A stretch of 26,270 bases of DNA from Armatimonadota bacterium. GTDB lineage: Bacteria > Armatimonadota > UBA10988 > DTZQ01. Location: NCBI GenBank assembly GCA_012961305.1, contig DTZQ01000493.1, positions 1 through 26,270 of the forward strand. The letters are read 5' to 3'. Under the pieces are notes generated by a model. That model saw nothing but the letters and a program-made list of their open reading frames with translations, searched no databases and had not been told where the DNA came from. Both the position numbers and the translations under genes were made by a program. Positions 1 to 11,696 of the stretch are shown here, in pieces; within the stretch, counting starts at the first letter, position 1; each line of letters opens with the position of its first letter.

Positions 1-52
1 GCGGGAATATCAGCCTCCGGCTGAGTAGTCACGAAAATTGGAGGACGGGTGT

Positions 53-1120
53 ATGTCTGAAGAAGTCCCTATGTTGCAGTTGCAGGATATTTGCCTGCGC
101 AAAGGTAACTTCTCCCTGGAGCACATTTCCTTCGCCGTGCAGCCGGGGGAGTGTTTCGTCCTTTTAGGGCCCACCGGCACGGGCAAGACCACCGTCTTGG
201 AGACCATCGCCGGGCTCAACCGTCCTCTGCACGGGGAGGTGTGGATTGATGGTCGGGCAGTTACCCATCTCAAGCCAGAACAGCGACAGATTAGTTACGT
301 CCCCCAGGACTATGCCTTGTTCCCCCACCTGCGGGTGATGGACAACCTAACCTTGGCCTGTCGGCTGCGGCGAATGCCCCGCCTGGAGATAGAAGGCCGG
401 CTGAGGGAACTGGTAGAACTGCTGCACTTGGAGCCTTTGTTGTCCCGCTGGCCCCACCACTTGAGCGGGGGGGAGAAACAGCGGGTGGCCCTGGCCCGGG
501 CCCTCATGATTCGGCCGCAGGTCCTACTTTTGGATGAACCCCTTTCGGCCCTGGATGCGGCCGCGCGCCGCTCCGTGCGGGGGGAGTTGAAACGAGTCCT
601 CAACCTGGCCCAGGCGACCACGATTATCGTGACCCACGATTACGTGGACGCTTTCACCTTCGGCGACCACATCGGGGTGATGGATAAGGGTCGCCTCGTC
701 CAAGTGGGCACGCGGGAGGAACTCCTTTTTGCCCCTAAAAGCAAGTTCATCGCTGAGTTCACGGGGGTCAACTTCTTCACTGGCTACATTGACCAAGCCA
801 GTGAGGATGGTTTGAAAATCGCCCGGGTAGGGGAAGTTTGCCTGTACTGTCTCTCGGAGTTGGAGGGGGAAGTGTTCCTTTCCTTCTTCCCCTCCGACGT
901 CACCCTGAGTCGCACTCCCCCCCAAGGTTCCGCCCGCAATGTGCTCAAAGGTGTGGTGCGAGACTTGGTGCACCTGGGCGACCGAGTGCGGGTGGGTCTG
1001 GATTGCGGCCTGCCTTTGGTGGCGGAAGTAACAGCGCAGGCGGTGGAGGAATTGCACCTACGGGAGGGGGATGAGGTGTTCGCCTCCTTCAAGGCCATTA
1101 GTGTCAAGACCTACCGGTGA
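53..1120 (+). CDS. modC: Molybdate/tungstate ABC transporter ATP-binding subunit (ModC/WtpC-like) with C-terminal TOBE domain
   Basis: Walker A GPTGTGKT, signature LSGGEKQRVALARAL, Walker B LLLDEP, H-loop VTHD, and a C-terminal TOBE with SARN. Start moved from 38 to ATG 53, which follows GGAGGA at 40-45. Confidence 0.85.
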   Translation: MSEEVPMLQLQDICLRKGNFSLEHISFAVQPGECFVLLGPTGTGKTTVLETIAGLNRPLHGEVWIDGRAVTHLKPEQRQISYVPQDYALFPHLRVMDNLTLACRLRRMPRLEIEGRLRELVELLHLEPLLSRWPHHLSGGEKQRVALARALMIRPQVLLLDEPLSALDAAARRSVRGELKRVLNLAQATTIIVTHDYVDAFTFGDHIGVMDKGRLVQVGTREELLFAPKSKFIAEFTGVNFFTGYIDQASEDGLKIARVGEVCLYCLSELEGEVFLSFFPSDVTLSRTPPQGSARNVLKGVVRDLVHLGDRVRVGLDCGLPLVAEVTAQAVEELHLREGDEVFASFKAISVKTYR

Positions 1121-1124
1121 GCCT

Positions 1125-1188
1125 ATGGAGTCAGGCCCTTTAGGGCCGTCGAGGCGTTAGTAGACGGGGCTCAGGCCCCCGAGTCCAA
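1125..1188. repeat. Inverted pair of 25-bp REP-like elements (REP doublet)
   Basis: 1125-1149 reads ATGGAGTCAGGCCCTTTAGGGCCGT. 1164-1188 reverse-complements to TTGGACTCGGGGGCCTGAGCCCCGT. A third copy lies at 9818-9842. Confidence 0.7.
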
Positions 1189-1209
1189 AGTTTGGGAGGA
1201 GGTTTCAAC

Positions 1210-1944
1210 ATGGGCGCCATAATCAACGAAGAAAAGGCAGGACAGAACTACTTGCGCATATTCTGCTCCTTGGTTCCGGCCCCGCCGCTGCGGGCTGCTG
1301 GACGGGTCTTCGCAGATAAGTTCGGGGTGGAGGTGGATTTAACTGCTGGCAAGCCGGAGGGATGGGCTCCTCTGGTCATCGGAGGGGAAGCGGGGGATGT
1401 TATCTGCTGCGGAGCGGAGTACCTGTTGGACGAGTTTGAGGATGCAGGGGCGATTATTAAAGAGTCGCGCCGAACGGTTGGTTACCGCCGGTCGGTGCTC
1501 ATCGTGGCCCCGGACAATCCGAAAGGCATCACTTCCTTGGCTGACCTGACGCGGCCAGAGGTGCGGGTGGGCATTGCCGTGGGCGGCTGTCCGAAGGGAA
1601 TTTGGGACGATATTTGCAGTAAGGCGGGCCTGACCGATGCAGTGCGGCGCAATATCGTGGTGCACGCCGATGGGTGTGGGTCACTTATTCGTGCCCTCAC
1701 CCAGGGCGAAATTGACGTGGGCTTTGGCTGGAGTTCCTTCTGCTGCTTCGCTCCCCAGAACGTGGCGGCGGTGGAACTATCCCGCGATTTGCAGGTGTAC
1801 CGCAGCACCTCCGTGGCTATCACTTCCTTCAGTCCCCGCAAGGAACTGGCCCGTCAGTTCATCGAGTTTCTGGTCACGGCTCCAGAAGCGCGGAAGTTCT
1901 ACGACGAGTTCGAAATGAGCCTCACGGTGCCTCCCCCGACTTAG
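1210..1944 (+). CDS. ModA-fold (PBP2) protein without signal peptide, 8 Cys
   Basis: LIVAPDNPKGITSLADLTRPEVRVGI, DVGFGW and ARQFIEFL are ModA-family segments. There is no hydrophobic N-terminus. ATG 1210 follows GGAGGAGG. Confidence 0.75.
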   Translation: MGAIINEEKAGQNYLRIFCSLVPAPPLRAAGRVFADKFGVEVDLTAGKPEGWAPLVIGGEAGDVICCGAEYLLDEFEDAGAIIKESRRTVGYRRSVLIVAPDNPKGITSLADLTRPEVRVGIAVGGCPKGIWDDICSKAGLTDAVRRNIVVHADGCGSLIRALTQGEIDVGFGWSSFCCFAPQNVAAVELSRDLQVYRSTSVAITSFSPRKELARQFIEFLVTAPEARKFYDEFEMSLTVPPPT

Positions 1945-1973
1945 ATTGGACGAGGAAAGGAGGTTGGGAAACC

Positions 1974-2933
1974 ATGATTATTCGGGCACGGGAACTTACC
2001 AAATACTACGGTGACCTCTTAGCGGTGGACCGGGTCTCTTTTGAGGTGCGGGAGGGTGAGGTTTTCGGTTTCTTGGGGCCCAATGGGGCAGGGAAAACGA
2101 CGACCATTCGGATGCTCATCGGCCTTTCGACCCCCAGTGGCGGTACGGCCGAAGTGGGCGGATTCGACGTGGTCAAACAGACAGTTCAGGTTAAGGAACG
2201 GATTGGAGTGGTGCCGGAGATTTCCAACCTGTACGATGAGTTGACCGTGGAGCAGAACCTGGTTTTTGCGGGACGGTTGTGCAAGATGGGGGGAGAAAGG
2301 TTGCAAGCGCGCATTGAGCACCTGCTGGAGTTCTTCCAGTTGCAGGAGAAACGAAAGGCTTTCTTTCGGCAACTTTCGCGGGGCCTGAAGCGCAAGGCGG
2401 TCATCGCCGCCGCCCTGCTGCACCAACCGCCCATCCTGTTCTTGGATGAACCAACCAGCGGATTAGACGTGCTCAGTGCCCGTTCCCTACGCAACCTCAT
2501 TCGAGAATTAAACGCCTTGGGGACAACCATTTTCCTCACCACGCACAACATCGAAGAGGCCGACCAACTTTGCCATCGGGTAGGCATTATCGTGCAGGGT
2601 AAATTGGTCGCCCTGGACACCCCAGAGCGGCTCAAGGCCCGCACCCAGGATAGACAGGCGGTGGAGGTTACCTTCTCCACAGGGGCGGAGGAGTTCTTGG
2701 CAGAACTGAAGGAAATCCCCTTCGCCCGCCAGGTGACTCAGCAGGGAGACAAGGTGCGAATCCTCTGTGCCGACGGTTCGCTGGCAGTGCACGAGTTGGT
2801 GAAATTCGCCGAGGCGCGAGGGGTGCAGATTGAGACCTTGAACACCCTCCGTCCCACTTTGGAGGATGCCTTTGTGGAACTGACTGGCATCAGTTCGGAA
2901 ATTATGCGGATTGACAAGGAAAGGGGCAAATAA
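1974..2933 (+). CDS. ABC-2 type exporter ATP-binding protein (DrrA-like)
   Basis: GPNGAGKTT, LSRGLKRK, LFLDEPTSGLD, LTTHNIEEADQLC and C-terminal PTLEDAFVELTG. SD GGAGG upstream. Confidence 0.9.
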   Translation: MIIRARELTKYYGDLLAVDRVSFEVREGEVFGFLGPNGAGKTTTIRMLIGLSTPSGGTAEVGGFDVVKQTVQVKERIGVVPEISNLYDELTVEQNLVFAGRLCKMGGERLQARIEHLLEFFQLQEKRKAFFRQLSRGLKRKAVIAAALLHQPPILFLDEPTSGLDVLSARSLRNLIRELNALGTTIFLTTHNIEEADQLCHRVGIIVQGKLVALDTPERLKARTQDRQAVEVTFSTGAEEFLAELKEIPFARQVTQQGDKVRILCADGSLAVHELVKFAEARGVQIETLNTLRPTLEDAFVELTGISSEIMRIDKERGK

Positions 2934-2934
2934 A

Positions 2935-3669
2935 ATGTGGGAGCGAGTGAAGATTTTGCTGTTCATTATGCTCAAAGACGCACACGTTTACTATTTCAAA
3001 CCGCCGAATGTAATGTGGGGCATTGGTTTTCCCATCGTCCTCATGTTGGTAGTTTTCTTCCTGCGGGGACAGGGTGACCTGCCGGCGCTGTTTCCGGGCA
3101 TCGTGGCCGTGGCGGTCATTTTCGGCACTTCCAGCATGGCGGCGGAGGTAATCATTTTGGAGCGTTTGGCGGGCACCTTCGACCGGCTGCTGCTGGCTCC
3201 CGTCCCCCTGTGGGCTCTCATTCTGGCTAAAGCCGTGGGAGGAGCCCTCTTTGGGTTGGCGACCACGGCAGCGGTCATCGTCATTACTCTGGGTTTCGTG
3301 CCGACCAGCATCTATTCGCCGCTGTTGTTTATTTTGGTGTTGACGGTGTCGGCGCTCACTTTCAGCCTCTTAGGAACTTTAATCTCGGCTTCGGTAAAGG
3401 CGGCCTGCGACGCTCCCCTGATGAGCAATATGCTGCGCTTTACCATGATTTTCCTCTGTGGCGTATTCGTGCCTGTTTCCCAGATGCCGGAAGTTGTGCG
3501 CCCGCTCGCTTACTTCCTGCCTTTGACCTACGCCGTAGATGGACTGCGCCAAGCCAGTTTGGGTCAGCCGGATGTGGTCAATGCGTACTTAGCGCTGCTG
3601 GTGCTGGGCGGGATAGCCGCCCTGCTTTTTGCCCGCACCCAGCAGGTCCTTCGGCAGAGTTTGCCGTAG
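2935..3669 (+). CDS. ABC-2 type exporter permease
   Basis: About 6 hydrophobic segments, ERLAGTFDRLLLAP, and FLCGVFVPVSQMP...LPLTYAVDGLR. ATG 2935 lies 1 nt after the stop of the ATPase gene. Confidence 0.88.
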   Translation: MWERVKILLFIMLKDAHVYYFKPPNVMWGIGFPIVLMLVVFFLRGQGDLPALFPGIVAVAVIFGTSSMAAEVIILERLAGTFDRLLLAPVPLWALILAKAVGGALFGLATTAAVIVITLGFVPTSIYSPLLFILVLTVSALTFSLLGTLISASVKAACDAPLMSNMLRFTMIFLCGVFVPVSQMPEVVRPLAYFLPLTYAVDGLRQASLGQPDVVNAYLALLVLGGIAALLFARTQQVLRQSLP

Positions 3670-3701
3670 CCGCTCTGTCAACGGCTAAAGGGAGCACCGA
3701 G

Positions 3702-4535
3702 GTGAGCCCCAAAGTCTGGTGGATAATTGGCGGGACGTTGGTCATCCTGTTGCTCATCTGGCAGGGGGTCCGGGTGGAAAGGGAAATTCATGCTACTGGC
3801 GCTGCGCCCAAACCGTTGTTAGAGAAAGGGGAGCGAAAAATTCAGGTTTTCGCTGGTGCGGCGAGCAAACCGGCCTTGGAGGAAGTGGCCCAGTTGTACG
3901 AGCAGCAGTATGGGACGAAAGTTGAGTGTACTTTCGGTGGTTCGGGGACCATGCTCTCCCAGATGCTTTTGGCTCAGCGGGGTGATGTGTACGTTCCCGG
4001 CTCGGATGACTTCATGGACAAAGCGGAGCAGAAGGGGGTGGTGGAGAAAGGTCGGCGGGAAATTGTGGCCTATCTCCTGCCGGTCATCGCCGTGCAGAAA
4101 GGCAATCCCCAGAACATCCAATCTTTGGAGGATTTGGCTCGGCCGGGGCTCCGAGTGGGCATTGCTCGCCCGGAAGCGGTCTGCTTAGGGGACATTGCGT
4201 TGGAGATTTTCGAGCAGGCCGGGTTGCGGGAGAAAATTGAACCCAACATCGTCACTCAGGCTACCAGTTGCTCCCACACCGCAGCCCTGGTCAAAATGAG
4301 GCAGGTGGACGCAGTTATCGGTTGGGATGTCTTTGCTGCCTGGTATCCGGAAGACATTGAGATGGTGCCGTTGCCCTCAGAACTGCGGCACTGGCGCTAC
4401 ATCCCCGCTGCGGTCACGAAGTTCGCCAGGGAGGAAAGGGAGGCGCAGCGGTTCGTGGATTTTCTCTGTTCCCAAACCGGAAAGGGAATTTTCCAAAGGC
4501 ACGGTTACACAGTTGTTGCTCCGGGGAGGGAGTAA
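3702..4535 (+). CDS. modA: Molybdate/tungstate ABC transporter substrate-binding protein
   Basis: N-terminal hydrophobic anchor; canonical FAGAAS and FGGSG oxyanion segments; AVQKGNPQNIQSLEDL. Extra Cys in EAVCLG and TSCSH. GTG start. Confidence 0.8.
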   Translation: MSPKVWWIIGGTLVILLLIWQGVRVEREIHATGAAPKPLLEKGERKIQVFAGAASKPALEEVAQLYEQQYGTKVECTFGGSGTMLSQMLLAQRGDVYVPGSDDFMDKAEQKGVVEKGRREIVAYLLPVIAVQKGNPQNIQSLEDLARPGLRVGIARPEAVCLGDIALEIFEQAGLREKIEPNIVTQATSCSHTAALVKMRQVDAVIGWDVFAAWYPEDIEMVPLPSELRHWRYIPAAVTKFAREEREAQRFVDFLCSQTGKGIFQRHGYTVVAPGRE

Positions 4536-4567
4536 AAGGCCGTAGGCTTTACCTTAGGAGGATGGGA

Positions 4568-5806
4568 ATGGGCGAGACTCTGATTAAAGCGGTAGACGTT
4601 TTCAAGTGCTGCATTTTAACCTGGGATTTCTTCCCGGTGGTCCTGCCGGCCTTTCTGATTGCAGGAGCGATACCGGTCTTTGTCCCGGCGGTGCACATTC
4701 TGCGCTATTTGGGCTATGGGGCTCGGAAAGTAGTAGCCTACACTGCGGCTTCCTTTTCCGGGTTCATCATCGCCATGTGTTCCTGCAACATCGTGCCCTT
4801 AGCGGCAAGCATTTACCGGCGGGGGGCTGGTATCGGACCGGCCTTTGCCTTTCTGTACGCCGGGCCGGCCATTAACTTCATTACCATGGTCTGGGTTTTT
4901 CAGGTAGTAGGGTGGCGCATGGGCCTGTGGCGGGCGGCTGCGGTGCCGATTATTGCTGTGCTCATTGGCCTGCTCATGCAGTTGATTTTCCGCCGGGAGG
5001 ACACCACCCGCCGGGTGCATTTTCAGGCCGTAGTCCAGCGCGAAATTTACACCGGAGAGGCTGTCCACCCCCAGAAGTTGGGCCTGCTTTTCGGGTTGCT
5101 CATTGGCATTTTAATTTTCGGGGCCAAGGGCCTGCCCTGGTGGCTGCGCTTCACCACGCTGGTAGTTTTCGGCGGGGGGCTAGTGCTGGTGGTCCGCCGG
5201 TGGTTCACACGGGAGGAGTTGCGGGATTGGCTGGAGGAGACCCTTCACTTCCTCAAATTGGTCCTGCCCATTCTGGTGTCGGCCATTCTGGCCATCGGCC
5301 TTGCCTTCCGCTACATCCCCATTAAATGGATGCATGACCACATTTATCCTTTGGTCGGCGACAATTCGCCCCGGGCCACTTTCATTGCTGCGGCGTTCGG
5401 CTCGGTGATGTATTTCCCCATCCTCACGGAGGTCGCCTTTACCAAGGCCCTGTTGAAGTACGAAATGTTGGGAGTAGGCCCGGCCCTGGCCATTCTGCTC
5501 AACGGCCCGGGGGTAAGCCTGCCGGGAGCCTTGCTGCTCCTGCGCATTTTCGGCTGGAAGAAGACGTTAGTTTACGAAGGACTGGAGATGTTCCTGGGCG
5601 GCTTAACGGCCATGTGGTTCGGACGATTATATGGCGAATATGTCTGCCCTTGCCAGACGGGGGAAGGGGCCAATCCGGTGGAGACCCTCATTGCCGTCAT
5701 AGTCATGATGGTGGTTATCGTCTTGGCGGCTTTCATCGTCTTTCGCTTTTCCTTGCCTCCCGCAGAGAAGGAGCCACCCTTAGCCCCGGAGGAAGCAAAG
5801 GCATGA
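4568..5806 (+). CDS. DUF318/ArsP-type permease
   Basis: MCSCNIVPLA, GAGIGPAFAFLYAGPAIN, a second half with MYFPILTEV and GPALAILLNGPGVSLP, and many TM segments. ATG 4568 has better spacing from AGGAGG than ATG 4562. Confidence 0.8.
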   Translation: MGETLIKAVDVFKCCILTWDFFPVVLPAFLIAGAIPVFVPAVHILRYLGYGARKVVAYTAASFSGFIIAMCSCNIVPLAASIYRRGAGIGPAFAFLYAGPAINFITMVWVFQVVGWRMGLWRAAAVPIIAVLIGLLMQLIFRREDTTRRVHFQAVVQREIYTGEAVHPQKLGLLFGLLIGILIFGAKGLPWWLRFTTLVVFGGGLVLVVRRWFTREELRDWLEETLHFLKLVLPILVSAILAIGLAFRYIPIKWMHDHIYPLVGDNSPRATFIAAAFGSVMYFPILTEVAFTKALLKYEMLGVGPALAILLNGPGVSLPGALLLLRIFGWKKTLVYEGLEMFLGGLTAMWFGRLYGEYVCPCQTGEGANPVETLIAVIVMMVVIVLAAFIVFRFSLPPAEKEPPLAPEEAKA

Positions 5807-6645
5807 AACGCATCGGCTGGCTTTTGAGTCTGGGACTGGTGGGGATTCTGGGGGGCTGTTCGCGCCCGGGGGGAGGTTCCTCTTCCCCACTCCCTCAGGG
5901 AACGACCCCCCCTCGGCAGGTGGAGGTCTTTGTGCCCTGTGGCATGATCATTCCCTTCAACAAGGTCAAAAGGCTGTTCCGGGAGCAGACGGGCCTGGAG
6001 GTGGACATTTTCTTCGAGAATGCGGTAAACCTGCTGAAGCGCATTCGCAAAGGGGCTCGTCCCGATGTGCTGGTCACGCCCGGGGAACTGGAGATGAAGC
6101 AGATGGAAGAGGAGGGTTACCTTGCTCCGGCAAGTGTGCGCACTTTTGGCACCTACCAACTCGTCCTCATCGTGCCCGGCCGCAACAAGGCTGGCATTAC
6201 TGCCCTTTCGGACCTAACCAAACCCTCGGTCAAACAAATTGCCATTGCCGACCCGGAGCAAAATTCGGTGGGCTACTATGCCCGCGAGGCCCTGAAAAAC
6301 CTGGGACTGTGGGAGGGGGTGCAGGATAAACTGGTGACCCATTGGCATGCCTTGCAGGCGGCGAAGTACGTGGTCAGCAGCCTGGTGGACGCGGGCCTTT
6401 ACTATGCTTCCTGTCCCTTTGACAGTGCGCCGGAGAAATTGGGCAACCGGCCCGGGCCCTACCGGGTCATTGAAGAGGTTCCGCCGGAGGCCTATCCGAA
6501 GGTTAAAGTGCAGGCGGGCCTCCTGCGGGAGGCTCCTCATCCGGCCGCGGGTTGGCAGTTTCTGGAGTTCCTGCTCTCTCCCCAAGCCCAGCACACCCTG
6601 GCCCAATGGGGCCTGCCCAATTACTCAAAGGAGGAAAACCCATGA
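5803..6645 (+). CDS. ModA-like lipoprotein with VPCG/YASC cysteine pair
   Basis: Lipoprotein signal MKRIGWLLSLGLVGILGG-C; ModA segments RPDVLV, IAIADPEQNSVGYYAREAL, FLEFLLSPQAQ. ATGA overlap with the permease stop. Confidence 0.8.
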   Translation: MKRIGWLLSLGLVGILGGCSRPGGGSSSPLPQGTTPPRQVEVFVPCGMIIPFNKVKRLFREQTGLEVDIFFENAVNLLKRIRKGARPDVLVTPGELEMKQMEEEGYLAPASVRTFGTYQLVLIVPGRNKAGITALSDLTKPSVKQIAIADPEQNSVGYYAREALKNLGLWEGVQDKLVTHWHALQAAKYVVSSLVDAGLYYASCPFDSAPEKLGNRPGPYRVIEEVPPEAYPKVKVQAGLLREAPHPAAGWQFLEFLLSPQAQHTLAQWGLPNYSKEENP

Positions 6646-7973
6646 AGAAAATGATTTTCGCCTGTTTGGTCGGGGCTCTCCTGCAGGGAGTCCTCGGCTG
6701 TGCCAAACCAAGTGAACAAGCAGGTCAGGCCGCCCCTCCCCCGGCCTTGCCGGAGGGCCTGGAGGAGCCCCAGGTATGGAAATTCACCTACGGGCCGGAG
6801 GAGGCCAAAGTGGTAGTGGAGGCCTTCTATCCCTTGACCGAGGCCCACCAGTGGGCGAAGGAAGTGGTGGAAAAGGTCTGTCAGGAGCATCCGGGCAAGG
6901 TGCGGGGCGTCGTGGTGGACTTTCGCCACGAGAAAGGCTCGGAGTTGTTTGTGCAAAAGGGGCTGACCTGTGGCACCATTCTCATCAACGGGGAGGACAC
7001 TTTCGATTTAGAGGGGCGCACCGTCATTTTCCAACAGGCGGAAGGGGGAATGTGGACCGAAGAGGATTTACGGCGCGTGGTGGCCCAGAAAGTGGAGGAG
7101 GCCTACGGAGCGACGGAAGGGGAGGAAGGTACGTCGGCAGAGACTTCGGCGGCGGCGCCGTCAGCCCAGACCCCTTCTCAGCCGAAAACCTCGCCTCCGA
7201 CTGCTCCCCCCCGCCTGGCGGGGGGACCGGCCCGACCGGAGGTCAAAGGAGAAGTTGAAGTCTACGTGCCCTGCGGAGTGGCTGGACCCTACGGGGAGGT
7301 CGCGGAGGCCTTTAAGGCCCAGTATCCCAACGTCCGGCTGCGCCCCCGGGTGGAAAATTTCTACGTCCTGCGCAATCGGGTGCGCGATGGAGCCACACCT
7401 GACGTGTTCCTCGTCTTCGGGCCCGTGGACTTAAAGCCCCTTGAGGAACGTGGGCGATTGGTTTCCGCCACCTACGTCAAATTGGCTAAAATTTCCCTGG
7501 CCCTCATTGTGCCCCCCAGCAATCCGGGGCAGGTGAAATCCCTGGAGGATTTGGCGGGGCCTGCGGTCAAGCAGATTGCCCTGGGCAAAGTGGACTTGGG
7601 TTCGGTGGGCTACTGCGCCCAACAGGCCCTCACCCGCGCCCAGTTGTGGGATAAGGTCAAAGACAAAGTTGTGGAAATCAAAATGCCCAGGCAACTAAAG
7701 GTCGTCGCCGCCGAGGGACAGGTAGAGGCAGCCATCGTGTTCAAAAGTTGTCTGTACGAAGCCCCCCGCCCCGGAAAGGAGCCAGAACCGCTCAAGGCTA
7801 CTTACATAGGCGACGTGCCCGCCCACCTGTACGACGAAATTGAGGTGGGCGCAGTGATGATAAAAGGCGCGCCTCACCCGGAGATGGCCCGCCTCCTGTT
7901 GGATTTTCTGGACTCCCCGGAAGTCAGAGCCACTTTTGTAAAGTGGTGGTTCACCCCTTTGGAGGAAGAGTGA
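6642..7973 (+). CDS. Lipoprotein: thioredoxin-like domain + Pro/Ala/Ser/Thr linker + ModA-like domain (VPCG/FKSC)
   Basis: Signal MKKMIFACLVGALLQGVLG-C; Trx-like strand-helix pattern (VVEAFYP...GLTCGTILING); ModA segments IVPPSNPGQVKSLEDL and LLDFLDSPE. ATGA overlap at 6642-6645. Confidence 0.75.
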   Translation: MKKMIFACLVGALLQGVLGCAKPSEQAGQAAPPPALPEGLEEPQVWKFTYGPEEAKVVVEAFYPLTEAHQWAKEVVEKVCQEHPGKVRGVVVDFRHEKGSELFVQKGLTCGTILINGEDTFDLEGRTVIFQQAEGGMWTEEDLRRVVAQKVEEAYGATEGEEGTSAETSAAAPSAQTPSQPKTSPPTAPPRLAGGPARPEVKGEVEVYVPCGVAGPYGEVAEAFKAQYPNVRLRPRVENFYVLRNRVRDGATPDVFLVFGPVDLKPLEERGRLVSATYVKLAKISLALIVPPSNPGQVKSLEDLAGPAVKQIALGKVDLGSVGYCAQQALTRAQLWDKVKDKVVEIKMPRQLKVVAAEGQVEAAIVFKSCLYEAPRPGKEPEPLKATYIGDVPAHLYDEIEVGAVMIKGAPHPEMARLLLDFLDSPEVRATFVKWWFTPLEEE

Positions 7974-8216: not shown

Positions 8217-8485
8217 TGGTCACCATTACCATCATCAAGGCCCCTACGCCCTGCCCGCAATGTCATTTGGCGGAACAGGTGGCCCAACAAGTGGCCGAAA
8301 ATTACCCCGGTGAGGTCGCGGTGAAGGTTCTCAGTGTACTGGACGAGGAGGCCGACCAGTACGGGGTGGTAATGACCCCGACGGTGATGGTGGACGATGT
8401 AATCGTCAGCGTGCGAAAAGCCCCCCGGCGGGAGCGTCTTGCAGCCTTGATTGCTCGGAAATTGGGATGTTTGCCGAATACTTGA
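8216..8485 (+). CDS. Small thioredoxin-family protein (Thioredoxin_3-like), CPQC
   Basis: PCPQC active site, YGVVMTPTVMVD cis-Pro segment, TGATG coupling. Confidence 0.85.
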   Translation: MVTITIIKAPTPCPQCHLAEQVAQQVAENYPGEVAVKVLSVLDEEADQYGVVMTPTVMVDDVIVSVRKAPRRERLAALIARKLGCLPNT

Positions 8486-8510
8486 CAAAAAAAGATGATA
8501 GGAGTATAAT
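8482..8510 (+). promoter_or_regulatory. sigma70-type promoter, perfect consensus
   Basis: TTGACA 8482-8487, 17-nt spacer, TATAAT 8505-8510, upstream of the MerR-family gene. Confidence 0.85.
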
Positions 8511-8577
8511 AAATAAAAGTGCCCCCAATGCTAAGGGCCAAATTGCCCGGGAGGCCCGTTTGTGGCGAAGGTTCATC

Positions 8578-9255
8578 ATGCGACCGGCGAAGAAACAAGA
8601 AGGTGTTTATACCATTGGAGTGGCGACCAAGTTGCTGGGGGTTCATCACCGCACGCTACGCATTTACGAGGAGGAAGGGCTCATTCTCCCCCAGCGGGAC
8701 CCTAAGAACAATCGGCGGCTTTATTCCGACCAGGACTTGGTCTGGATTCGCTGCATTCGCCAACTCATTCACCAGGGCGGTCTCACCGTCAAGGCCATCC
8801 GCCGCTTATTGGATTTAGTGCCCTGCTGGGAGATTAAACACTGCCCGGAGGAACAGTGGCGTCGGTGCTTGCCCAACTTGAACATTCCCCATATGAAATT
8901 GCCTCCCCAGGTGGCTCCCCCGGAACTGCTCTTGGAGGGAAAAAAGGCCCGAGCCGAGAAAACGGTGGAAATCAAACTTTTCTATGGGGTGCGGGAATTT
9001 GGGGCAATTTTGCCCTGTTCCAAGTGCATTAAAGCCGAGCGCGTTCTTCGCAAAGTGGCCCAGAGGTTTGGGGACCGAATTACCATCGTGAAGTACGAGG
9101 CTTCCTCGCCGGAAGCAGACCGCTATGAGGTGCTTCTCACCCCTACCATTTTCCTGGACGAGGAGCCGTTGGTGATAGGCGGGGTTCCTTCGGAGCCGGC
9201 GTTAGAGAGGGCGATTGAAAAGTCCTTGGCAAGTAGAAGGGAAAGTGGGGAATAA
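8578..9255 (+). CDS. MerR-family regulator with Cys-rich CW motif and C-terminal thioredoxin domain
   Basis: YTIGVATKLLGVHHRTLRIYEEEGL...RRLYS HTH, then PCWEIKHC...C, then PCSKC and TPT in a Trx domain. The start is set at ATG 8578 because the promoter lies inside the longer ORF-track call. Confidence 0.85.
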   Translation: MRPAKKQEGVYTIGVATKLLGVHHRTLRIYEEEGLILPQRDPKNNRRLYSDQDLVWIRCIRQLIHQGGLTVKAIRRLLDLVPCWEIKHCPEEQWRRCLPNLNIPHMKLPPQVAPPELLLEGKKARAEKTVEIKLFYGVREFGAILPCSKCIKAERVLRKVAQRFGDRITIVKYEASSPEADRYEVLLTPTIFLDEEPLVIGGVPSEPALERAIEKSLASRRESGE

Positions 9256-9327: not shown

Positions 9328-9753
9328 ATGGCTCAATCAGAGTTCAAGGTAGCCCTGGTCGCCTGCGACGGCATTGGGCGGTTGGTTTCCACCGTGGTGC
9401 GGCAGGCGGCCTACAAGGTCATGCAGCAGCGACCGGAAGAAGTGATTTTAGTGGACACCGGGATGCTCCTGGCCGACCAACCGGAGGCTTTGGAGGTCAT
9501 CAACAAATACCCAGTGGTGGTCATTGACGGCTGTCGCCCGCGCTGTGGGACCGTGATGACCGAAGGCCATGGCGTCAAACCGGCGGTTACGGTGTACACC
9601 CGGGATGTGGTGGCCCAGGAGAAAATCTCCTTGGTGGGCGAGCAACGGCGAGGTCTGGGCGAAAAGGGTATGCGCCTGGCCGAAGCCGTCGCCCAGCGAG
9701 TAATTGAAGCCGTTGACCTGCTCATCGCCGAAGAGATGGTGAGCACGCTTTAG
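9328..9753 (+). CDS. DGC-domain putative zinc-binding protein
   Basis: ACDG...VVIDGCRPRC pattern of the DGC family; SD AAGGAG. Confidence 0.75.
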   Translation: MAQSEFKVALVACDGIGRLVSTVVRQAAYKVMQQRPEEVILVDTGMLLADQPEALEVINKYPVVVIDGCRPRCGTVMTEGHGVKPAVTVYTRDVVAQEKISLVGEQRRGLGEKGMRLAEAVAQRVIEAVDLLIAEEMVSTL

Positions 9754-9757
9754 GGAG

Positions 9758-9977
9758 TTGAGATTTCAAACCTGGTAACCATTCAGCCGGCTGTTTCTAA
9801 AGGGACAAGGGGACCCTTTGGAGTCAGGGGCTTCAGCCCCGTTAGGACGGCGCTTGTCCAAAAGGACTGAGGACTGAGTCGTGAGTACTGAGTTCCTCCG
9901 CCCTCGGTCCTCAGCACTGGTGAAGGAGGGGGTGAGGGGGTGAAGGCTGAGCGGTTACCAAACTGAAATTTGAGATT
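9758..9977. repeat. Nested intergenic repeat composite, MITE-like
   Basis: Imperfect ~26-bp inverted arms at 9763-9788 and 9945-9969, and flanking direct repeat TTGAGATT at 9758-9765 and 9970-9977. Inside are a REP copy, a GGACAAG/CTTGTCC stem, heptamer repeats and GGTGA(A)GG repeats. Confidence 0.55.
9818..9842 (+). repeat. REP-like element, third copy
   Basis: TTGGAGTCAGGGGCTTCAGCCCCGT with hairpin GGGGCT-TC-AGCCCC; matches the copies at 1125-1188. Confidence 0.7.
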
Positions 9978-9994
9978 GCTTGGAGGTAACCATC

Positions 9995-10456
9995 ATGCCA
10001 GAGAAAGTAACTTTACAGCCTTGTTTGGGCCTGACGCCGGTGGAAACGACCGTCGGACGACAGGCTTGTTACTTGGTGGCCGAGGAACTGCGGGCGGGGA
10101 AGGCCAATTTGGGCTGCGGGCCGGCCCTGAACGCCCGGGTGCAGGAAGACCTCGATTTCATCGAGTATTACCCCATTATCGCGGTAGAGGGTTGTGACCG
10201 CTGCTGTGCCAGTCGGCTGGTGCGCAAGTTCGGACAGGAACCAGAGGTAGCGGTCATCGTGCCGGAGGTGTTGCGCGAGGCCGGGATTTCCTTGGCGGCG
10301 GAAAAGGGGTTAGTCGCAGAGGTGGACCCCTACCAAGTACGCTGTGGAGCAGGAAAACCTGACCCTACCCCGCATTTGGAGTTAGACCATCCCGCCGTGC
10401 AGGCCGTGGCCCAACGGTGCGTGGCCGAGTTGGACCGCCTGCTGTCCGCCCCATAG
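9995..10456 (+). CDS. DGC-like putative zinc-binding protein, 8 Cys
   Basis: PCLG...GCGP...IIAVEGCDRCC; paralogous to 9328-9753 (TTVGRQAC vs STVVRQAA, YPIIAVEGC vs YPVVVIDGC). ATG 9995 follows GGAGG. Confidence 0.7.
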   Translation: MPEKVTLQPCLGLTPVETTVGRQACYLVAEELRAGKANLGCGPALNARVQEDLDFIEYYPIIAVEGCDRCCASRLVRKFGQEPEVAVIVPEVLREAGISLAAEKGLVAEVDPYQVRCGAGKPDPTPHLELDHPAVQAVAQRCVAELDRLLSAP

Positions 10457-10511
10457 CCAGCAGTCACGAATGCGAGGCGCGAGTAACCAGAGACTCGCCG
10501 CTCACAATTGG

Positions 10512-10556
10512 AAATCTGCTGCCCCCAGGGACCTTCGGGGAGGCGGGATTTTTTCT
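10512..10556 (+). terminator. Possible intrinsic terminator or attenuator
   Basis: Imperfect GC-rich stem (CTGCCCCC / GGGGAGGCGG) followed by ATTTTTTCTATTT, lying between the second DGC gene and the aquaporin gene. Confidence 0.4.
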
Positions 10557-10603
10557 ATTTCCCCCGGAAGAGGACAGAATTTGGAGGACGGGAGGAAACC
10601 CTG

Positions 10604-11476
10604 ATGAATGAGCGAAGGAAACTCTACGGCGAATGTCTGGCCGAGTTCATTGGCACCTTTATCCTGGTGTTCTTCGGCGTCGGCTCAGTTCACACGGCGG
10701 TCTCCACGCAGGCGCAAGCCGGACTGTGGCAGGTAGCGGTAGTGTGGGGAGTGGCTATCGCCTTGGCCATCTACGCGACAGGGGCGGTAAGCGGCTGTCA
10801 CATCAACCCGGCCATTACCCTGGCTTTCGCGGCCTGGCAGGGGTTCCCCTGGCGGAAAGTGCTGCCCTACATTGCTGCTCAGGTCGCCGGAGCCTTTGCC
10901 GCTGCTGCTGTACTCTATGGACTATTCCACGGTGCCATTGCCCATTTTGAGGCCCAGCACAGCATCGTGCGCGGCCAGCCGGGCAGCCAACTGTCGGCCA
11001 TGATGTACGGCGAATATTTCCCCAATCCGGCCATCTTAGGCACCGATGCCGCCGCTTGGGCCCAAGTTTCCCACTTGCAAGCCTTTTGCGCGGAACTCGT
11101 CGGCACGGCTTTTTTGGCCTTTTTCGTCTTTGCCCTGGTGGACCCCCAAAACTGGGGAGCGCCACGGGGAAATATGTTCGCTTTGTTCATCGGCTTGACG
11201 GTGTCCATCGTCATCTCCATCATTGCTCCCCTCACCCAAGCGGCCCTGAACCCTGCCCGGGACTTCGGTCCGCGACTATGGGCCCTGCTGGCCGGTTGGG
11301 GACCTATTGCCATTCCCGGCCCCCGTGGCGGGTTCTTTACCGTGTACATTCTGGCCCCCCTCTGGGGAGGCCTGTTGGGTGGATTAGTCTATGAACGGTT
11401 AATTGTACCGTTCCGAAAGGTTTCCAAGACCGGAGAACAGGAGGTTGCTTTAGATGAGGGAAAGGGTCGAGGTTAA
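10604..11476 (+). CDS. glpF: MIP-family aquaglyceroporin (GlpF-type)
   Basis: Two NPA boxes, SGCHINPA and ALNPARDFGPR (NPARD is the glyceroporin signature); AEFIGT and AELVGT. ATG 10604 follows GGAGG. Confidence 0.85.
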   Translation: MNERRKLYGECLAEFIGTFILVFFGVGSVHTAVSTQAQAGLWQVAVVWGVAIALAIYATGAVSGCHINPAITLAFAAWQGFPWRKVLPYIAAQVAGAFAAAAVLYGLFHGAIAHFEAQHSIVRGQPGSQLSAMMYGEYFPNPAILGTDAAAWAQVSHLQAFCAELVGTAFLAFFVFALVDPQNWGAPRGNMFALFIGLTVSIVISIIAPLTQAALNPARDFGPRLWALLAGWGPIAIPGPRGGFFTVYILAPLWGGLLGGLVYERLIVPFRKVSKTGEQEVALDEGKGRG

Positions 11477-11696
11477 AGTCCCCGAATTCGAAACGGAGTG
11501 CCAGGCCTACCTGAGTTTCTGGTACAAACAGGAGGGAGAAGAGGTCACGGCGGGGGAAGATTTGGTTGAGTTCGAGACCGACAAGGCAGCCGTCACTGTG
11601 GAGGCTCCAGCCACGGGCAAACTGGCGCAAATTTTCGTGGGCGAGGATGAAGAAATCACCAGCGGGCAGGTGGTGGGCATTATTGAAGCCATCTAA
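11454..11696 (+). CDS. Stand-alone lipoyl-domain protein
   Basis: W...GEEVTAGEDLVEFETDKAAVTVEAPATGKL: the lipoylation motif ETDKA is intact. 80 aa with no catalytic domain; overlaps the aquaporin end by 23 nt. Confidence 0.85.
   Translation: MRERVEVKVPEFETECQAYLSFWYKQEGEEVTAGEDLVEFETDKAAVTVEAPATGKLAQIFVGEDEEITSGQVVGIIEAI

Follow-up and report, generated by a model that had tools for sequence, protein, structure and literature searches.

A cysteine-bearing, stand-alone lipoyl carrier that overlaps an aquaglyceroporin gene in Armatimonadota, and its possible part in an arsenic-type metalloid system

Introduction

Why would a lipoyl domain that stands alone begin inside the end of a channel gene? 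The question is raised by positions 10,604 to 11,696 of a 26,270-nt stretch of DNA from an Armatimonadota bacterium (contig DTZQ01000493.1 of GenBank assembly GCA_012961305.1, positions 1 to 26,270 of the forward strand; this whole stretch is referred to as the window). The source is a metagenome-assembled genome (MAG) of 713 contigs that is 88.8% complete. An initial annotation, made from the window alone, described an 80-residue lipoyl domain with an ETDKA motif that overlaps the gene for an aquaglyceroporin (MIP) by 23 nt, and both open reading frames (ORFs) are indeed where it placed them, with Pfam and NCBIfam in agreement. Lipoic acid is the classical cellular target of arsenite, and the annotation proposed that the lipoyl protein serves as a decoy or shuttle that captures trivalent arsenic or antimony at the channel.

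The lipoyl protein turns out to belong to a rare family of carriers, here named CLip for Cys-bearing stand-alone lipoyl carrier. What is new is this E2-type, cysteine-bearing family itself, together with its NifS/thioredoxin core, its thioredoxin fusions and its recurrent pairing with MIP. As for function, which is proposed here from gene content, fusions and neighborhoods, CLip could be a core part of an undescribed lipoyl dithiol/sulfur relay in an arsenic-type metalloid system that has the channel for a port; this is the reading that we favor, at a confidence poised about midway between belief and disbelief.

A family of cysteine-bearing lipoyl carriers

The short frame of CLip is no chance frame, since it has homologues of 34–68% identity and its AlphaFold2 (AF2) model has the fold of E2 lipoyl domains. 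The protein matches PF00364 with 53.6 bits against a cut-off of 22.1 (GCV_H, at 16.2 bits, stays below its own cut-off), and its motif, E41-T42-D43-K44-A45, is of the lipoyl type rather than the biotinyl A/E-M-K-M. In the model, which has a predicted local distance difference test score (pLDDT) of 91, the predicted lipoyl-lysine K44 sits between strands 36–42 and 46–50. The top Foldseek matches are E2 lipoyl domains, with template modeling (TM) scores of 0.78–0.87 and root-mean-square deviations of 1.6–2.5 Å. Two further features stand out: a cysteine, Cys16, in the β1–β2 loop, and the residues FWY at 22–24.

How widespread are such carriers? Only 19 sequences were seen in all, 17 of which were aligned, and every one of these 17 keeps the loop cysteine, an (F/Y)-W-(Y/H) motif and the lysine. 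Among the 133 other lipoyl domains in which the position of Cys16 is aligned, none has a cysteine there, methionine, serine, threonine and alanine being usual. In the E2 lipoyl-domain structures from the Perham laboratory, the β1–β2 loop reportedly lies beside the lipoyl-lysine turn; Cys16 and a dihydrolipoyl-Lys44 would bring three thiols together. The family falls into two clades, one with ETDKA and a sister clade with E(T/S)AKA, which resembles the ESAKA of a DGC–GcvH fusion described below.

Membership in the family is sharply defined. A profile search of 401 Armatimonadota genomes found CLip in 14 of them, at 78–143 bits and in short frames of 80–220 residues, while no E2 enzyme scored above 65 bits. 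Word- and pattern-based searches returned few close relatives. A four-sequence profile yielded one close relative from genome contigs (G017) and one from metagenome contigs (L094), all other matches being E2 enzymes, and a search of representative proteins gave only P0003, P0231 and P0232 as single-domain members among many multi-domain E2 proteins. (The closest metagenomic relatives are P0002 and P0003.) Neighbors of the MIP, DGC, MerR/Trx or ArsP kind occur in none of the 172 loci from the contig scans with the four-sequence profile. At L094 (Ga0068707_1006419), the lipoyl gene is preceded by a gene (58–2508) for an 816-residue protein with a weakly LmbE- or mycothiol-conjugate-amidase-like N-terminus, a further neighbor from thiol metabolism.

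CLip is a dedicated carrier and not a fragment of a 2-oxoacid dehydrogenase. Three other identities were considered and rejected. An E2 enzyme would need more than CLip has: the frame stops after 80 residues, with neither a subunit-binding domain nor a PF00198 core. A decayed E2 fragment is set aside because the carrier is stand-alone in all members seen. A biotin carrier would have a different motif; two BCCP-like genes are found elsewhere in the MAG, the one on contig C422 beside a biotin-carboxylase-like gene.

The channel and its overlap with the carrier gene

The anatomy of the gene pair is clear. The MIP gene has GGGAGG 8 nt before its ATG and ends with TAA at 11474–11476, so that it shares the 23 nt from 11454 to 11476 with the lipoyl gene, which has its own AGGAGG, 9 nt before its ATG. 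We infer from this layout that translation of the lipoyl gene would be coupled to that of the channel. In another genome, G286, the corresponding overlap is 4 nt.

What does the channel carry? The protein matches PF00230 with 171.7 bits and TIGR00861 with 186 bits (cut-off 171), has two NPA-type motifs (HINPA and LNPAR) and is nearest to Escherichia coli GlpF (1fx8; E 9e-60, 206 bits). In the gap-free alignment to 1fx8, however, the selectivity filter reads W48-I204-A213-R219 as against W48/G191/F200/R206 in GlpF, and the isoleucine and the alanine recur in 147 and 145, respectively, of 149 homologues with 54–77% identity. The cysteine of SGCHINPA (Cys65), which the initial annotation had pointed out, is present but not conserved: 20 of the 149 homologues have a cysteine at that site and 107 an alanine, and the pore cysteine was rejected as a defining feature of the channel. 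Glycerol catabolism was likewise rejected, for lack of glpK. No glycerol kinase was found in the MAG, where the best match to TIGR01311 has 186 bits against a cut-off of 590, and GlpK is not among the listed downstream ORFs at 29 orthologous MIP loci, where no GlpK-directed test was made.

The role that we propose for the channel is conduction of As(OH)3 or Sb(OH)3. Both As(III) and MAs(III) pass through GlpF and aquaporins (AQPs), and AqpS takes the place of ArsB in an ars operon (PMC1440775, PMC6138428). In the MAG, Acr3 was not found and the ArsB superfamily gives a weak match only; a low-molecular-weight protein tyrosine phosphatase (LMW-PTP) of the thioredoxin-type ArsC-like kind is encoded on contig C7 (138 bits, cut-off 174).

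Could the pair have come together by accident, as a glycerol facilitator next to a leftover E2 lipoyl domain or to an intermediate carrier of lipoate assembly? The closeness of the channel to GlpF is what one would expect in that case, and free lipoyl domains do occur beside lipB–lipA (at L098). However, the pair recurs in four genomes from four different family bins of the search tool, the CLip subfamily has an invariant cysteine of its own and no lip genes next to it, the MAG has neither glpK nor an E2 core, and the filter departs from that of GlpF in 147 of the 149 homologues. With so much against it, chance adjacency is very improbable.

Partners and fusions of the carrier

The neighborhoods of CLip recur across the 14 genomes, and their most constant members are sulfur and redox proteins. 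A NifS-like cysteine desulfurase is found near CLip in nine of the genomes, and Trx_3 proteins of the MTH895/ArsE type in at least nine, including three in which thioredoxin and lipoyl domains are fused. ModA-fold binding proteins or ModBC are nearby in eight. A pair of DGC genes, an ArsP_1 permease and a distantly ArsM-like methyltransferase (this last in G017, G258, G774 and G178) each occur in four. MIP stands directly upstream of CLip in four genomes as well (G000, G286, G774 and G779), and a fifth genome, G249, has it at a distance of 4.7 kb. The remaining nine CLip genes have no MIP nearby, and the channel is therefore best regarded as an optional module. DGC1, DGC2 and CLip form one co-directional run in the window, as they do in G286, G779 and G249, and 4-nt overlaps are found at many junctions, for example between the NifS, Trx-like, CLip and methyltransferase genes of G178.

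The pairing of channel and carrier is thus conserved close to ars-like genes (ArsP_1, ArsE-type Trx, DGC and the ArsM-like enzyme), as the initial annotation would have it. Homologous pairs in polyol or acetoin operons with E1 subunits, which it named as the finding that would speak against its proposal, were not encountered: no polyol or acetoin gene is among the neighbors, and neither an E1 nor an E2 core occurs in the CLip stretches of any of the 14 genomes. The window itself, by Pfam and NCBIfam over all large ORFs and by tblastn with E1 alpha/beta and E2, has no E1, E2 core, E3, GcvH/T/P, GlpK or lipoate ligase, in line with what the annotation had noted. A claim that ars-like genes are missing nearby would go too far: the window itself has ArsP_1, an ArsE-type Trx and DGC genes.

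Gene fusions bring the partners closer still. In G779 (194 residues) and G249 (213 residues), a thioredoxin precedes CLip in the same chain, and in G234 (186 residues) the order is reversed; the thioredoxin half is a CxxC Trx_3 domain in each. The small thioredoxin-like protein of the window, Trx82, is 43% identical to that half of the G779 fusion by blastp. The MIP of G286 (L204:7097–8347) has a 140-residue cytoplasmic C-terminal extension that ends in a Trx-like domain devoid of cysteine. A free ORF ahead of the CLip–Trx gene in G234 shares 49% identity with this domain, which has remoter kin in G178 and G258.

Such fusions recall oxidative defense. In the Mycobacterium tuberculosis Lpd–DlaT–AhpD–AhpC relay of Bryk et al. 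(2002), a lipoyl domain is said to pass reducing equivalents from Lpd to a thioredoxin-like protein, and fusions of Trx to CLip in either order suggest the same kind of contact. By analogy, CLip might reduce Trx-like detoxifiers of peroxide or persulfide in a defense against oxidative or sulfane stress, with MIP as the peroxide channel, and aquaglyceroporins can pass H2O2. An Lpd in the genome and a Trx-fused regulator of the redox type would also agree with this. On the other hand, the mycobacterial relay has a full E2, an AhpD acceptor and a peroxiredoxin, none of which is present here (no peroxiredoxin, OsmC/Ohr or AhpD was found by Pfam of the window ORFs and by a limited tblastn panel at the loci), and the ars-type neighbors would be left without an explanation. 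Defense of this kind is a poor candidate, only a little better placed than accident.

The methyltransferase that accompanies CLip has ArsM families as its only significant NCBIfam relatives (the best, NF040538, at 88 bits and E 7e-25, with a cut-off of 500); judged by its sequence, it is a distant relative of ArsM only.

The window and the channel cassette in other Armatimonadota

The genes that lead up to the pair are listed in Table 1.

Table 1. Features of the window, from the upstream cluster to the lipoyl gene
Feature	Position	Strand	Basis
ModC-like ATPase, four ModA-fold binding proteins, ABC-2 exporter, ArsP_1 (PF03773) permease	38..7973	+	Pfam
Trx82, small CxxC thioredoxin-like protein, 82 aa, MJ0307 / MTH895-ArsE type	8219..8467	+	NCBIfam
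MerR-HTH regulator fused to thioredoxin-like domain (MerR/Trx)	8467..9255	+	PF13411 68.4 bits, PF13192 32.8 bits
Sigma-70-like promoter, 12/12 consensus TTGACA-17-TATAAT	8482..8510	+	Consensus match only
DGC-domain protein 1 (DGC1)	9328..9753	+	PF08859 47.9 bits
DGC-domain protein 2 (DGC2)	9980..10456	+	PF08859 38.7 bits
GlpF-clade aquaglyceroporin (MIP), 290 aa	10604..11476	+	PF00230, TIGR00861, alignment to 1fx8
AGGAGG Shine-Dalgarno of lipoyl gene, within MIP coding sequence	11439..11444	+	Sequence read
CLip, stand-alone Cys-bearing lipoyl domain, 80 aa	11454..11696	+	PF00364, AF2, Foldseek, alignments

The modules of the co-directional upstream cluster accompany the CLip subfamily elsewhere too, as seen from synteny with G286, G178, G249, G234, G739 and G789. 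Trx82 scores under the cut-off with both of its families (TIGR00411, 36.5 bits; TIGR00412, 32.4 bits). Because the consensus promoter sits inside the 5′ part of the longest ORF of the MerR/Trx gene, the true start of that gene is probably near 8578, and the promoter probably drives the run from MerR/Trx through the two DGC genes and MIP to the lipoyl gene.

All 20 aligned DGC sequences keep the cysteines that in DGC1 are C13, C69 and C73. Modeled by AF2 (pLDDT 93), DGC1 has a three-layer fold like that of flavodoxin, for which Foldseek gave no match at E ≤ 1e-3. By VIA, the nearest structures are 3pu6, an uncharacterized protein of Wolinella (Z 8.6), and the C-terminal domains of E1-beta/transketolase (Z ~8), values that are within background. 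There was no match to DGC1 in a search for longer proteins, nor by tblastn against plasmids.

How typical is this arrangement? Orthologous MIP genes were found in 32 of 301 sampled Armatimonadota genomes, and at 17 of 29 other loci they are preceded by the same two DGC genes (PF08859); at 12 of these 17, an orthologue of the MerR–thioredoxin fusion lies inside the 1.5-kb flank. The usual order is MerR/Trx and DGC1–DGC2–MIP, followed by a putative outer-membrane protein of 222 residues and a transglutaminase-like protein, a third DGC-like protein or both. It is in the place of these last genes that the lipoyl gene stands in the window. The spacers of the window, 9754–9979 between DGC1 and DGC2 (226 nt) and 10457–10603 between DGC2 and MIP (147 nt), compare with mostly 13–45 nt in the orthologous cassettes, and the intervals between the genes seem to have gained sequence by insertion. 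A terminator that had been suspected at 10512–10556 was not called by a scan, the 147-nt spacer folding only marginally better than its shuffles (z −1.8).

At the cassette loci L205–L216, the extra genes comprise the 222-residue putative outer-membrane protein, the transglutaminase-like protein (PF01841) and the third DGC-like protein, which has 244 residues and no Pfam or NCBIfam match. A second class of MIP loci lacks the DGC genes; at a minimum of six of these 12 loci, the gene immediately downstream of MIP encodes a CobW-like GTPase. This G3E-type enzyme, with a GGCFCC motif, directly follows a W-I-A-R MIP at L176, L180, L189, L191, L202 and L203, and forms a second conserved pairing with the channel.

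DGC and lipoyl carriers in Bacillota

DGC proteins and lipoyl carriers are linked outside the phylum as well. An Atlas cluster of 292-residue proteins has PF08859 and PF01597 in one chain. In Bacillota, such a DGC–GcvH protein (GCV_H 117.9 bits, DGC 64.8 bits) is encoded in an operon that consists of ArsR (HTH_5), a Cys-rich protein of 125 residues (HdrA-N-like), DGC–GcvH, two DGC proteins, a CxC protein, a class-V aminotransferase (NifS-like) and an Fe-S protein. The operon that was verified has ArsR–Acr3 at a distance of 5 kb and ArsP_1, DUF2703 and DGC on its other side. The DGC–GcvH core is present in eight Bacillota genomes, four of them near-identical kin and the other four ~48% identical to these; four genomes have ArsR–Acr3 at 5 kb, and two have ArsP_1 in the vicinity.

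The DGC–GcvH fusions of Bacillota and the shared CLip/DGC runs of Armatimonadota together link DGC to a lipoyl carrier, by fusion in one phylum and by operon in the other. In both, the neighbors of the DGC/lipoyl carriers include an enzyme that resembles desulfurases, a port for metalloids and a small Trx-like protein rich in cysteine. The Bacillota HdrA-N-like, Fe-S (FeS187-like) and ArsR proteins gave no match in the window by tblastn.

Lipoate in the source genome

Can the host make the cofactor? The MAG has LipA (382 bits; C645:2493–3242), Lpd (504 bits) and GcvH, and from the sequences, attachment of lipoate to K44 is plausible. The MAG also contains a second orphan carrier (C597:300–790, + strand), in which a lipoyl and an E3-binding domain are followed by a stop before the catalytic core, and an E1 alpha/beta pair on another contig (C135:198–2388). 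The E2 catalytic domain PF00198 was not found anywhere in it.

A radical SAM gene of the BioB-like kind (TIGR00433, 37 bits; L279:8996–10003) directly follows the Trx–CLip gene in G779. Neither the genome of the window nor any of the other loci searched has a counterpart of it. The lipoyl synthases LipS1/LipS2 were formerly annotated as biotin synthases (PMC10332631).

A relay, a shuttle or a decoy?

What, then, might CLip do? Its constant partners are redox and sulfur proteins, whereas the channel, though recurrent, is optional, and for this reason we see in CLip the swinging arm of a relay. In the relay that we favor, Lys44 would be lipoylated, in a genome that has LipA. The lipoyl dithiol, with Cys16, would then swap electrons, sulfane sulfur or a metalloid with the CxxC Trx-like protein, the Cys-rich DGC protein and the NifS-like desulfurase, and the carrier would be recycled by the dihydrolipoamide dehydrogenase of the genome. 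The W-I-A-R aquaglyceroporin would serve as the port for neutral As(OH)3 or Sb(OH)3, or for a methylated product where the methyltransferase exists, and the 23-nt overlap would ensure that the two genes are expressed together. The attachment of lipoate, the substrate, the part played by Cys16 and the direction in which the cargo moves are all predictions from sequence, and antimony, selenium and tellurium are not distinguishable from arsenic with these data.

A more specific version can be put forward only tentatively, namely that three sulfurs of the carrier, from its lipoyl group and its cysteine, bind As(III) or one of its methylated or thiolated forms, and that the carrier shuttles this cargo to the ports and is recycled by Lpd. 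As part of the same tentative version, the shuttle would run between the desulfurase, thioredoxin, DGC and methyltransferase set on one side and the aquaglyceroporin and ArsP-type permease on the other.

The original proposal of a decoy or shuttle is simpler: CLip would be stoichiometric, capturing As(III) or Sb(III) on three thiols at the cytoplasmic mouth of the channel, and would either guard the lipoyl enzymes or hand the metalloid on. Its model could be ArsD, whose As(III) site consists of three cysteines of the protein itself and which docks on the ArsA ATPase. Like ArsD, CLip would be a small cytosolic protein that holds As(III) on three sulfurs for transport; unlike ArsD, it has an unrelated fold, and there is no ArsA at the CLip loci. 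The invariant cysteine in the loop by the lipoyl-lysine turn would supply the third sulfur ligand, and the proposal gains from the adjacency of MIP and CLip in four genomes, from the overlap of the two genes in the window and G286, and from the cytoplasmic Trx-like domain on the MIP of G286, which is related to neighbors of CLip. Against these points, most CLip genes have no MIP neighbor, no MIP–CLip fusion was seen, the pore cysteine is not conserved, and the fusions to CxxC redox domains and the desulfurase as the commonest neighbor suggest catalytic turnover. The supported parts of the proposal are the pairing, the ars-like context and the possible trithiol; a decoy at the channel has no specific support. 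With NifS-like and CxxC Trx proteins as the most constant partners, with three Trx fusions and with DGC–GcvH fusions elsewhere, a relay that turns over is preferred to a sacrificial decoy; we consider the decoy or shuttle at the channel rather unlikely.

The ModA-fold and ModBC proteins point in another direction, towards molybdenum or tungsten. Sulfur from NifS could pass via CLip and Trx to cargo of the ModA-like/ModBC proteins, in the handling of thiomolybdate or thiotungstate or in the sulfuration of a cofactor, and MIP would be a mere neighbor. NifS-like domains do sulfurate molybdenum cofactors in known enzymes, and ModC/TOBE, ModB and ModA-fold proteins occur with CLip as often as noted above, nearly matching NifS. 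However, ArsP_1, the ArsM-like methyltransferase, DGC and MIP would have no rationale as neighbors, G774 and G779 have MIP–CLip with no ModABC genes in reach, and the DGC–GcvH cassettes adjoin ArsR/Acr3. Such chemistry is improbable, if less so than a peroxide defense.

Several observations weigh against the metalloid relay that we favor. ModBC and NifS fit molybdenum/tungsten–sulfur chemistry equally well, and the counts over the 14 CLip genomes are inflated by kinship among them. The channel is missing from the vicinity of nine of the 14 CLip genes, the regulator is MerR/Trx or HTH/Trx and not ArsR, and ArsC, ArsA/D and ArsH are absent from the Armatimonadota CLip loci. In the methyltransferase, the stretch opposite what we take to be the SNC-Cys motif of ArsM reads VSDEP, so that the SNC cysteines are missing, and there is no ArsM among its matches in the Protein Data Bank (PDB; none at all by phmmer, and only generic methyltransferases with a four-sequence profile). 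Finally, no octanoyl or lipoyl transferase (LipB, LplA or LipM) was found in the 88.8%-complete MAG, whose sole PF03099 protein is a clear BirA (C103:998–1870); the missing enzyme may be encoded in the uncovered 11% of the genome.

Relation to known systems

One parallel to the carrier and its neighbors is the ArsR-headed cassette of Bacillota. The two have tandem DGC proteins, a lipoyl carrier, a Cys-rich Trx-like protein, a NifS-like protein and an exit for metalloids in common, the exit being Acr3 there and MIP here. They differ in that the Bacillota carrier is of the GcvH type, fused to DGC and accompanied by HdrA-N-like, Fe-S and ArsR proteins, whereas CLip is of the E2 type, has the extra cysteine and is unfused or fused to Trx.

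Part of the gene set has been seen to respond to arsenic. In Pseudodesulfovibrio mercurii ND132, an operon of ArsR5, ArsP, ArsE (PF13192) and DGC (PF08859) is differentially expressed with arsenic (bioRxiv 10.1101/2022.10.17.512643). The window has the same PF03773 permease, PF13192 thioredoxin-like and PF08859 DGC proteins; the ND132 operon, on the other hand, has ArsR and neither MIP nor a lipoyl carrier.

An aquaglyceroporin among metalloid-type genes, in place of ArsB or Acr3, is also found in the AqpS operon of Sinorhizobium meliloti (arsR–aqpS–arsC–arsH), where AqpS has been proposed as the way out for As(III) that arises inside the cell (PMC6138428). The cassette described here differs by its lack of ArsR, ArsC and ArsH, by its MerR/Trx regulator, by its DGC, Trx-like and lipoyl partners and by the W-I-A-R filter of its channel.

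A precedent for a free lipoyl carrier in sulfur chemistry is LbpA (PMC6067878). Like CLip, the LbpA of the sHdr system is a small free carrier outside 2-oxoacid and glycine metabolism that works with sulfur-transfer proteins (PMC6067878, PMC11094781). LbpA is GcvH-like, however, and CLip is E2-type, with an invariant cysteine and with NifS, Trx, MIP and ArsP as neighbors; sHdr, DsrE and TusA families are not among the window ORFs. A literature search found no publication in which a lipoyl carrier is connected with ars genes, and none on the DGC–GcvH cassette of ArsR-headed operons.

Significance

Why does such a small gene matter? Very few systems are known in which free lipoyl carriers do work beyond central metabolism, namely LbpA in sulfur oxidation and the mycobacterial DlaT–AhpD, and the DGC–GcvH fusions in ArsR-headed operons of another phylum are an independent parallel to the CLip system. 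If the metalloid reading is true, the DGC (PF08859) and ArsE-type proteins of ars islands would gain a function, the handling of arsenite in organisms with no detected Acr3 and no clear ArsB pump would be explained, and lipoate would be a cofactor of defense, and not only a victim. If, in addition, the carrier itself binds As(III), there would be a cofactor-based pathway of metalloid detoxification parallel to the chemistry of ArsC, ArsD and ArsA.

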